From: Escherichia coli
GTDB taxonomy: Bacteria > Pseudomonadota > Gammaproteobacteria > Enterobacterales > Enterobacteriaceae
Strand: one strand, 5' to 3'
DNA length: 64,000 nt
NCBI RefSeq assembly: GCF_051903065.1
Contig: NZ_CP178438.1
Below the pieces are notes generated by a model. It was not told the DNA's origin, searched no databases, and worked only from the letters and a program-made list of their open reading frames with translations. The position numbers and the translations under genes are program-made. Shown one piece after another: positions 9,499 through 12,620 of the stretch (positions within the stretch are counted from its first letter, which is position 1; each line of letters opens with the position of its first letter).

Positions 9499-9621
9499 GC
9501 AATCAGCAACCGTTTTCGTGGCTTTACACTTATAAGGGTGTTAAGAAGCCCATCAGTCTGATAAGGTTAAGATATTCATTCAGTCTATTTATAATATTAA
9601 CAATCGTTAAGCGTACACTCT

Positions 9622-10359
9622 ATGGAAAGCCCTACTACACAGCCTGCTCCTGGTTCGGCGACCTTCATGGAAGGATGCAAAGACAGTTTACCGATTGTTA
9701 TTAGTTATATTCCGGTGGCCTTTGCGTTCGGTCTGAATGCGACCCGTCTGGGATTCTCTCCTCTCGAAAGCGTTTTTTTCTCCTGCATCATTTATGCAGG
9801 CGCGAGCCAGTTCGTCATTACCGCGATGCTGGCAGCCGGGAGTAGTTTGTGGGTTGCTGCACTGACCGTCATGGCAATGGATGTTCGCCATGTGTTGTAT
9901 GGCCCGTCACTGCGTAGCCGTATTATTCAGCGTCTGCAAAAATCGAAAACCGCCCTGTGGGCGTTTGGCCTGACGGATGAGGTTTTTGCCGCCGCAACCG
10001 CAAAACTGGTACGCAATAATCGCCGCTGGAGCGAGAACTGGATGATCGGCATTGCCTTCAGTTCATGGTCATCGTGGGTATTTGGTACGGTAATAGGGGC
10101 ATTCTCCGGCAGCGGCTTGCTGCAAGGTTATCCCGCCGTTGAAGCAGCATTAGGTTTTATGCTTCCGGCACTCTTTATGAGTTTCCTGCTCGCCTCTTTC
10201 CAGCGCAAACAATCTCTTTGCGTTACCGCAGCGTTAGTTGGTGCCCTTGCAGGCGTAACGCTATTTTCTATTCCCGTCGCCATTCTGGCAGGCATTGTCT
10301 GTGGCTGCCTCACTGCGTTAATACAGGCATTCTGGCAAGGAGCGCCCGATGAGCTATGA
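9622..10359 (+). CDS. ygaZ: AzlC-family branched-chain amino acid (L-valine) exporter subunit
   Basis: 245 aa membrane protein; conserved pair with ygaH. Confidence 0.9.
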
Positions 10360-10684
10360 GGTTCTGCTGCTTGGGTTACTGGTTGGCGCGGCGAATTATT
10401 GCTTCCGCTATTTGCCGCTGCGCCTGCGTGTGGGTAATGCCCGCCCAACCAAACGTGGCGCGGTAGGTATTTTGCTCGACACCATTGGCATCGCCTCGAT
10501 ATGCGCTCTGCTGGTTGTCTCTACCGCACCAGAAGTGATGCACGATACACGCCGTTTCGTGCCCACGCTGGTCGGCTTCGCGGTACTGGGTGCCAGTTTC
10601 TATAAAACACGCAGCATTATCATCCCAACACTGCTTAGTGCGCTGGCCTATGGGCTCGCCTGGAAAGTGATGGCGATTATATAA
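10349..10684 (+). CDS. ygaH: AzlD-family exporter small subunit
   Basis: 111 aa membrane protein overlapping ygaZ end. Confidence 0.9.
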
Positions 10685-10774
10685 CCCACAAGAATCATTT
10701 TTCTAAAACAATACATTTACTTTATTTGTCACTGTTGTTACTATATCGGCTGAAATTAATGAGGTCATACCCAA

Positions 10775-11305
10775 ATGGATAGTTCGTTTACGCCCATTGA
10801 ACAAATGCTAAAATTTCGCGCCAGCCGCCACGAAGATTTTCCTTATCAGGAGATCCTTCTGACTCGTCTTTGCATGCACATGCAAAGCAAGCTGCTGGAG
10901 AACCGCAATAAAATGCTGAAGGCTCAGGGGATTAACGAGACGTTGTTTATGGCGTTGATTACGCTGGAGTCTCAGGAAAACCACAGTATTCAGCCTTCTG
11001 AATTAAGTTGTGCTCTTGGATCATCCCGTACCAACGCGACGCGTATTGCCGATGAACTGGAAAAACGCGGTTGGATCGAACGTCGTGAAAGCGATAACGA
11101 TCGCCGCTGCCTGCATCTGCAATTAACGGAAAAAGGTCACGAGTTTTTGCGCGAGGTTTTACCACCGCAGCATAACTGCCTGCATCAACTCTGGTCCGCG
11201 CTCAGCACAACAGAAAAAGATCAGCTCGAGCAAATCACCCGCAAATTGCTCTCCCGTCTCGACCAGATGGAACAAGACGGTGTGGTTCTCGAAGCGATGA
11301 GCTAA
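10775..11305 (+). CDS. mprA: MarR-family repressor of emrAB
   Basis: 176 aa winged-helix MarR-like ORF immediately upstream of emrAB. Confidence 0.95.
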
Positions 11306-11351
11306 CGCGTCATCTCGCTCAAAAATCCAGATTTATAAAAGAAAAAATGAC

Positions 11352-11381
11352 TGGCCAGCATCGCAACATGCTGGCCTTTTT
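11352..11381 (+). terminator. Hairpin with T-run between mprA and emrA (possible attenuator or partial terminator)
   Basis: ggccagcatcgcaacatgctggcc followed by ttttt. Confidence 0.5.
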
Positions 11382-11431
11382 GGCAAGCAGGTCGGCTCAG
11401 CCGATGAGTTAAGAAGATCGTGGAGAACAAT

Positions 11432-12604
11432 ATGAGCGCAAATGCGGAGACTCAAACCCCGCAGCAACCGGTAAAGAAGAGCGGCAAACGTAAGCGTCTG
11501 CTCCTCCTTCTCACCTTGCTCTTTATAATTATTGCCGTAGCGATAGGGATTTATTGGTTTTTAGTACTGCGTCATTTCGAAGAAACCGATGACGCATACG
11601 TGGCAGGGAATCAAATTCAAATTATGTCTCAGGTGTCTGGCAGCGTGACGAAAGTCTGGGCCGATAACACCGATTTTGTAAAAGAAGGCGACGTGCTGGT
11701 CACTCTCGACCCGACAGATGCTCGCCAGACGTTTGAAAAAGCCAAAACTGCACTGGCTTCCAGCGTTCGCCAAACCCACCAGCTGATGATTAACAGCAAA
11801 CAGTTGCAGGCGAATATTGAGGTGCAAAAAATCGCCCTCGCGAAAGCACAAAGCGACTACAACCGCCGTGTGCCGCTGGGCAATGCCAACCTGATTGGTC
11901 GCGAAGAGCTGCAACACGCCCGCGACGCCGTTACCAGTGCCCAGGCGCAACTGGACGTCGCGATTCAACAATACAATGCCAATCAGGCGATGATTCTGGG
12001 GACTAAACTGGAAGATCAGCCTGCCGTGCAACAGGCTGCCACCGAAGTACGTAACGCCTGGCTGGCGCTGGAGCGTACTCGTATTGTCAGTCCGATGACC
12101 GGTTATGTCTCCCGCCGCGCGGTACAGCCTGGGGCGCAAATTAGCCCAACGACGCCGCTGATGGCGGTCGTTCCAGCCACCAATATGTGGGTGGATGCCA
12201 ACTTTAAAGAGACGCAGATTGCCAATATGCGTATCGGTCAGCCGGTCACTATCACCACCGATATTTACGGCGATGATGTGAAATACACCGGTAAAGTGGT
12301 TGGTCTGGATATGGGCACAGGTAGCGCGTTCTCACTGCTTCCGGCGCAAAATGCGACCGGTAACTGGATCAAAGTCGTTCAGCGTCTGCCTGTTCGTATC
12401 GAACTGGACCAAAAACAGCTGGAGCAATACCCGCTGCGTATCGGTTTATCCACGCTGGTGAGCGTCAATACCACTAACCGTGACGGTCAGGTACTGGCAA
12501 ATAAAGTACGTTCCACACCGGTAGCGGTAAGCACCGCGCGTGAAATCAGCCTGGCACCTGTCAATAAACTGATCGACGATATCGTAAAAGCTAACGCTGG
12601 CTAA
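11432..12604 (+). CDS. emrA: Multidrug efflux membrane fusion protein
   Basis: ORF 11420..12604; start trimmed to MSANAETQ (390 aa); HlyD-family coiled-coil adaptor. Confidence 0.95.
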   Translation: MSANAETQTPQQPVKKSGKRKRLLLLLTLLFIIIAVAIGIYWFLVLRHFEETDDAYVAGNQIQIMSQVSGSVTKVWADNTDFVKEGDVLVTLDPTDARQTFEKAKTALASSVRQTHQLMINSKQLQANIEVQKIALAKAQSDYNRRVPLGNANLIGREELQHARDAVTSAQAQLDVAIQQYNANQAMILGTKLEDQPAVQQAATEVRNAWLALERTRIVSPMTGYVSRRAVQPGAQISPTTPLMAVVPATNMWVDANFKETQIANMRIGQPVTITTDIYGDDVKYTGKVVGLDMGTGSAFSLLPAQNATGNWIKVVQRLPVRIELDQKQLEQYPLRIGLSTLVSVNTTNRDGQVLANKVRSTPVAVSTAREISLAPVNKLIDDIVKANAG

Positions 12605-12620
12605 TCCAGAGGTGCGTGTG

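Follow-up and report, generated by a model that had tools for sequence, protein, structure and literature searches.

In Escherichia coli, the rplL-rpoB attenuator and the rpsU-dnaG terminator are known as leaky intercistronic terminators, for which read-through has been measured and the products of the flanking genes are unequal. Other intercistronic hairpins, such as the REP elements of malE-malF and the puf hairpins of Rhodobacter, have no U-tract, act after transcription and protect the upstream mRNA. The emrRAB operon was reportedly described by Lomovskaya et al. in 1995 as having one EmrR-repressed promoter upstream of emrR. A more recent report (PMC6469979) summarizes the accepted model, in which a single promoter upstream of emrR is under EmrR repression and emrA and emrB are co-transcribed with emrR. 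Chen et al. (PNAS 2025, PMC12704781) found in Northern blots that the main mprA isoform is ~900 nt, compared with a ~3.5-kb operon transcript; they explain its end by a "Rho-independent terminator" located between the two genes, and place its start site by 5' RACE at codon 49 of ygaH. Our study examines the hairpin found in this intergenic region in a 64-kb stretch of DNA (contig NZ_CP178438.1, assembly GCF_051903065.1), referred to here as the window, all positions being given in its coordinates.

The window comes from an E. coli chromosome, and the segment 10700-11500 has a match in 5417 of 5426 complete E. coli genomes, several of them 100% identical, where the annotated genes are emrR (= mprA) and emrA. 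All the genes considered here lie on the + strand. According to the list of open reading frames and to annotated E. coli genomes, ygaZ (9622-10359) and ygaH (10349-10684) precede mprA (10775-11305), which encodes the 176-amino-acid MarR-family repressor of emrAB and is 100% identical to annotated emrR; the pump genes emrA (11432-12604) and emrB (12621-14159), identified in the same list and by annotation, lie 3' of the terminator. The spacer between mprA and emrA measures 126 nt and contains ggccagcatcgcaacatgctggcc (11353-11376), whose halves GGCCAGCAU and AUGCUGGCC form a perfect stem of 9 bp, including 6 G-C pairs, closed by a loop of 6 nt. The 5' arm GGCCAGCAT (11353-11361) and the 3' arm ATGCTGGCC (11368-11376) were delimited by the sequence, the terminator scan, the fold and the alignment of 77 spacers, and the loop CGCAAC (11362-11367) by the sequence and the fold. 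The U-tract TTTTT (11377-11381) abuts the stem directly and is followed by GG, and the whole element lies 48 nt past the mprA stop codon and 50 nt ahead of the emrA start. The initial annotation, which reported a hairpin with a T-run between mprA and emrA, was thus right about the element and gave its sequence exactly; the start that it proposed, 11352, is one base too early, and what it called an operon leader is the intercistronic spacer between the two genes.

The combination of this hairpin and its T5 run is far beyond chance. It was the best-ranked site on both strands in a terminator scan of 9500-15500, and the isolated segment 11345-11385 folds at -16.7 kcal/mol, compared with -9.7 +/- 2.2 for shuffled sequences (z = -3.16), an energy that none of 200 dinucleotide shuffles reached. 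The hairpin is present in both the minimum-energy and the centroid structures of 11300-11440, and its nine pairs have predicted equilibrium probabilities of 0.87-1.0 in three contexts containing from 80 to 230 nt of upstream RNA. In a strict scan, sites had to combine a perfect stem of 9 bp, five or more of them G-C, with a loop of 3-8 nt and no fewer than 5 T among the 8 nt that follow; the 64-kb window yielded five such sites, and 30 dinucleotide-shuffled versions of it yielded none. These five include the mprA-emrA hairpin and the operon-end terminator located 3' of emrB (14167-14197, AAAGGGAGC-TTCG-GCTCCCTTT with a T-rich tail), which the terminator scan detected as well. The d'Aubenton-Carafa score of the E. 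coli hairpin is +12.4 against a classical cut-off of 0, a value that is approximate because ViennaRNA energies were used, so that the zero threshold is indicative only. The stem is G+C-rich and has a short loop and a length within the range of about 5-14 bp expected of intrinsic terminators; a U-tract is present, and its shortness, five residues followed by GG, speaks against a terminator. On the minus strand, the palindrome at 11353-11376 was also scored as terminator-like, with a T-run offset by 5 nt, because of the A-rich tract at 11337-11347 in the mprA 3' UTR. We found no minus-strand genes converging on this site, where the palindrome might stop antisense transcription that originates inside emrA.

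The published data place an in vivo 3' end within this U-tract. In Supplementary file 1 of Adams et al. (eLife 2021, PMC7815308), the sheet for LB at OD 0.4 includes a Term-seq 3' end at position 2811376 (+) of MG1655, and the 61-nt string given for it, ATTTATAAAAGAAAAAATGACTGGCCAGCATCGCAACATGCTGGCCTTTTTGGCAAGCAGG, is identical to 11331-11391 of the window, its 51st base being the fifth T, at position 11381, that is, the last U of the run. It is important to note that this signal is weak: its mean of 861 reads is near the lowest values of the list, it was classified as 'orphan', and the coordinate appears in one of three growth conditions. The table of Rho regions in the same study has no entry for mprA or emrA, a weak and indirect hint that termination here does not depend on Rho. 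With respect to the transcript, codon 49 of ygaH, reported by Chen et al. as the start site of the main ygaH'-mprA transcript, corresponds to 10493-10495 in the window, and the distance from there to 11381 is 887-889 nt, in agreement with the 888 nt that the same authors give for this transcript. The initial annotation had proposed that a terminator at this site would produce a short mprA-only transcript detectable by Term-seq or Northern blotting, and both kinds of evidence, the 3' end at 11381 and the ~900-nt isoform, are therefore already in print. The terminator is a known one, the same element as in PMC12704781 and PMC7815308; since its 3' end and the short mprA-only transcript had both been published, the finding is correct but ordinary.

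Taken together, we consider it likely that the hairpin and its U5 run are a constitutive intrinsic (Rho-independent) terminator that ends mprA and allows read-through into emrAB, leaving the repressor message in excess. RNA polymerase coming from the mprA promoters would transcribe the G+C-rich stem and then the U-tract, where a large share of the complexes would release their RNA at or near 11381 to give a short mprA-only mRNA, with a main isoform of ~888 nt, while the other polymerases would continue into emrAB. In this way, the same EmrR-controlled promoters would yield more repressor message than pump message, as partial release at 11381 implies. The structure, its conservation, the in vivo 3' end and the short transcript are established facts; that the 3' end arises by termination rather than by processing, and that termination is incomplete, we infer from them and from the organization of the operon. 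Termination is probably partial because emrAB depends on the EmrR-controlled promoter and a scan for sigma-70-like promoters on the + strand of 11306-11431 found none. In Salmonella, the deletion of emrR raises emrA RNA 5.7-fold and emrB RNA 5.9-fold according to PMC6469979, as the emrRAB operon model predicts, and transcription from upstream must therefore cross the hairpin in that organism. It is plausible that the terminator sets the MprA:EmrAB ratio.

Special attention was given to the conservation of this element beyond E. coli. One genome per species was scanned, from Escherichia to Kosakonia and Kluyvera, which gave 80 loci whose MprA proteins are 90-99% identical; the stem is kept in all 80, and emrA lies 114-133 nt 3' of mprA in every locus except one, which has a spacer of 189 nt. 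In the alignment of the 77 distinct Enterobacteriaceae spacers, eight core stem pairs are paired in every sequence that has letters in both columns, and there are compensatory changes at three pairs: pair 66-91 goes from GC to AU in 2 sequences; pair 70-87 goes from AU to UA in 1 sequence and is GU in 3; and pair 74-83 is GC in 31 sequences, CG in 6, UA in 3 and UG in 3. The loop differs among genera in both sequence and length (3-8 nt). As for the tail, TTTTTGG is confined to the Escherichia loci and to three loci of Kosakonia/Enterobacter among the 80, and the tail in most genera is TTTCTGA. Five loci, from Klebsiella indica, Raoultella planticola, Citrobacter braakii and Enterobacter sp. 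JUb54, have the tail TGTCTGA, and in four of these five the stem is a perfect 16 bp and the U-run is missing; in Citrobacter braakii the stem is longer by four pairs. The approximate d'Aubenton-Carafa scores range from +12 to +14 in Escherichia and from -27 to +19 outside it, where about half of the loci fall below 0. These results indicate that the stem is ancestral to the sampled Enterobacteriaceae and that its quality as a canonical terminator varies. Because the tails and scores vary in this way, termination alone does not explain the conservation of the hairpin, and the stem may have a second role, either in blocking exonucleases or within a larger structure.

Homologues of ygaZ and ygaH are found upstream of mprA in many genomes of Citrobacter, Klebsiella, Raoultella, Trabulsiella, Phytobacter and Kosakonia (loci L009, L011, L014, L019, L024-L029, L033, L034, L037-L039, L041, L043, L047, L055, L061, L062, L066, L071, L072, L074, L075, L078 and L079 of our set); in our sample of species, this gene order thus extends beyond Escherichia. 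We considered whether the stronger U-tract of Escherichia had evolved along with the acquisition of ygaZH, and this idea was rejected because many loci of Citrobacter, Klebsiella, Raoultella, Trabulsiella and Kosakonia combine ygaZH with the UUUCUGA tail.

Within E. coli, about half of the 5417 genomes have one or two base differences from the window in 11336-11395. Two of the spacer variants were read, 11349 G to A and 11352 T to C, which lie just 5' of the stem and leave the hairpin intact. In the blood isolate AF57 (NZ_OZ546943.1, 2538-4000), IS4 has inserted into the hairpin, interrupting its 3' arm at the equivalent of position 11373 and leaving a target duplication of 12 bp (CGCAACATGCTG); this insertion, read in one genome, separates mprA from emrA. 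Besides AF57, four of the 5417 matching genomes cover less than 80% of the probe. Laboratory selection has also reached this spacer: a preprint (bioRxiv 10.1101/392977) reports that E. coli W3110 evolved under CCCP acquired six mutations in the mprA-emrA spacer, along with mutations in the mprA coding sequence. At the other end of the operon, two overlapping open reading frames lie on the + strand directly 3' of emrB (14417-16233). The first (235 amino acids) matches the Pfam family RNA_ligase, PF09414 (E = 6.5e-28), and the second (370 amino acids) carries an AAA_33 kinase domain at its C-terminus (E = 3.5e-32) and, by eye, HD-like motifs near its N-terminus. This RNA-repair-like pair looks like a strain-variable insertion, because luxS directly follows emrB in E. 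coli APEC O78.

An unlikely account of the same data is that the hairpin serves mainly in RNA processing or stability: the transcript would be cut downstream, exonucleases would trim it back, the mprA segment would be protected by the stem, and the lifetimes of the segments would set the mprA:emrAB ratio. The preservation of the stem in 80 of 80 loci, many of which have no usable U-tract, agrees with this idea, particularly in the five loci with UGUCUGA tails, four of them with the 16-bp stem. The mapped 3' end lies only 5 nt beyond the stem, and Term-seq by itself cannot tell whether such an end arose by termination or by cleavage and subsequent 3' trimming up to a hairpin. Moreover, the alignment and the fold identified a second conserved hairpin in the emrA 5' untranslated region, GTCGGC-TCA-GCCGAT (11391-11405), located 14 nt past the terminator stem and 9 nt past the T-run and itself lacking a T-run. 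In the 77 sequences its pairing reaches 97%, with compensatory changes at two pairs, and it might protect a processed emrAB message at its 5' end or join a larger structure. Against processing as the main function, the E. coli element has a canonical U-run with the 3' end on its last U, as intrinsic termination predicts, Chen et al. name a Rho-independent terminator here, and cleavage sites in the mprA-emrA spacer are not reported in the literature. Termination and processing can coexist at one hairpin.

The spacer around the terminator is conserved to an extent that calls for its own explanation. The mprA 3' UTR upstream of the hairpin (11306-11352), as defined by the 77 aligned Enterobacteriaceae spacers, has three conserved blocks, CGCG (11306-11309), CGCTCA (11316-11321) and TCCAGATT (11326-11333). 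The translation-initiation region of emrA (11415-11450), comprising the Shine-Dalgarno GGAG (11422-11425), the ATG (11432-11434) and the first six codons, reads AAGATCGTGGAGAA...ATGAGCGCAAATGCGGAGA and is invariant or nearly so in the 77 sequences, most wobble positions included, with two GGA motifs ~24 nt apart; the EmrA N-terminus, at 50-65% identity in most genera, is far less conserved than the spacer. We also observed a mini-ORF at 11404-11412, flanking the second hairpin on its 3' side, which reads ATG AGT TAA in Escherichia and is replaced in most other genera by a bare start-stop, ATG TGA (GCCGATGTGAAA).

Such conservation would fit a reading that we regard as improbable, in which the hairpin is the central stem of a structured intercistronic RNA of ~130 nt whose mprA 3' UTR pairs with the ribosome-binding site, the start codon and codons 4-5 of emrA. 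The stretches 11306-11334 (CGCG, CGCUCA and UCCAGAUU) and 11415-11446 are complementary, and the minimum-free-energy fold of 11300-11455 predicts three long-range helices between the mprA 3' UTR and emrA: CGCGU (11306-11310) with emrA codons 4-5, CGCUCA (11316-11321) with UGAGCG at the emrA start codon, and UCCAGAUUU (11326-11334) with AAGAUCGUGGA at the emrA Shine-Dalgarno. The predicted duplex reaches -20.5 kcal/mol in E. coli, compared with -13.6 for shuffled sequences (z = -2.2), but the median z across species is just -1.6. Most of the 77 sequences are predicted to form the same three helices, and both partners are strongly conserved, emrA wobble positions included; nevertheless, the invariance of the 3' partner, which presumably reflects the needs of translation, makes two-sided covariation impossible, and about half of the one-sided changes break pairs. 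The CGCUCA:UGAGCG helix is 96.5% paired, with 20 of 28 departures from the commonest pair keeping the pairing by wobble. In addition, the initiation region pairs with its mprA 3' UTR partner with a predicted probability of 0.30, as opposed to 0.125 in shuffled sequences, and each is the preferred partner of the other, whereas the total pairing from the Shine-Dalgarno to the AUG is 0.40 versus 0.38 in shuffled sequences, that is, no net extra occlusion. The modelling thus leans against the idea that the mprA 3' UTR occludes the ribosome-binding site and leaves the long-range pairing as an unproven lead. Were it real, translation of the pump from the read-through mRNA would be gated, for example by being opened by ribosomes that terminate at the mprA stop codon, or the gating might be mimicked in trans by the terminated mprA 3' UTR, whose U-tail is not long enough for a typical Hfq-dependent small RNA and for which Rfam has no family. 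As a circumstantial observation, the emrA mRNA is described in a proximity-ligation preprint as having few rRNA contacts (depletion).

The initial annotation had also suggested an attenuator. In the regulated sense, with an antiterminator, a leader peptide, or a ligand-binding RNA or protein deciding whether the terminator forms and so tuning emrAB, this is highly improbable. The unusually good conservation of the spacer and the six mutations that CCCP selected within it, reported in the preprint cited above (bioRxiv 10.1101/392977), could be accommodated by such a mechanism, but the hairpin pairs at 0.87-1.0 in every context and forbidding it costs 14-17 kcal/mol. No antiterminator competing with the hairpin was found in the three upstream contexts, where inspection by eye gave only an alternative pairing of 4 bp. 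The sole open reading frame that crosses the hairpin, with an ATG at 11347 and 21 codons, is not conserved: E. albertii, E. whittamii and Escherichia sp. E1V33 lack its ATG, and all other genera carry CTG at this position. An Rfam scan of 9500-15500 at E <= 1 returned no match. With neither an antiterminator nor a conserved leader peptide found, and with Rfam giving no match, regulated attenuation is unsupported and is largely refuted on sequence grounds. Finally, a perfect inverted repeat beside a MarR-family repressor gene might suggest that the palindrome acts as DNA, as the operator of a dimeric regulator such as EmrR itself. This is highly improbable and was rejected because the arm spacing varies from 3 to 8 nt among genera, intolerable for a protein site of fixed geometry. 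The free variation of the loop and the compensatory changes at three stem positions point to an RNA hairpin, and the known EmrR operator, as described in PMC6469979, lies upstream of emrR, where an inverted repeat is found close to the -10 box of the promoter.

The constitutive terminator, our preferred reading, would partly uncouple the repressor MprA/EmrR from the EmrAB multidrug pump, and the textbook picture of a single emrRAB message is therefore incomplete. This should be taken into account in reading expression data for mprA and emrAB and in interpreting spacer mutations that confer resistance. The uncoupling was already pointed out in print by Chen et al. (PMC12704781); what our study adds is the cross-genus picture of the stem and U-tract, and the observation that the spacer and the emrA initiation region are more conserved than a terminator needs.

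When compared with known systems, the mprA-emrA element has a terminator hairpin upstream of regulated genes, as have trp, pyrBI and riboswitch expression platforms, but unlike these it has no antiterminator, conserved leader peptide or aptamer. Its resemblance to the 3'-UTR small RNAs CpxQ and UhpU lies in a conserved 3' UTR that ends at an intrinsic terminator and has conserved single-stranded blocks upstream of it; unlike them, however, the mprA 3' UTR has no reported short RNA and no Rfam family, and its U-tail has 5 residues, and 3 in most genera. With the malE-malF REP elements and the puf hairpins it shares a stable stem-loop after the first cistron, and it differs from them in E. coli by a U5 run with the 3' end on that run; the Klebsiella and Raoultella versions that lack a U-tract resemble these hairpins more closely. 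With the terminator of Chen et al. (2025) and Adams et al. (2021), position, sequence, 3' end and the 888-nt transcript all agree and there is no difference in E. coli, the text of the two papers giving neither a termination efficiency nor a cross-genus comparison of stem and U-tract. The element is also like rplL-rpoB and rpsU-dnaG in being an intrinsic terminator between cistrons, a likeness that depends on the read-through we infer here, and it is set apart from both by an upstream gene that encodes the operon's own repressor.
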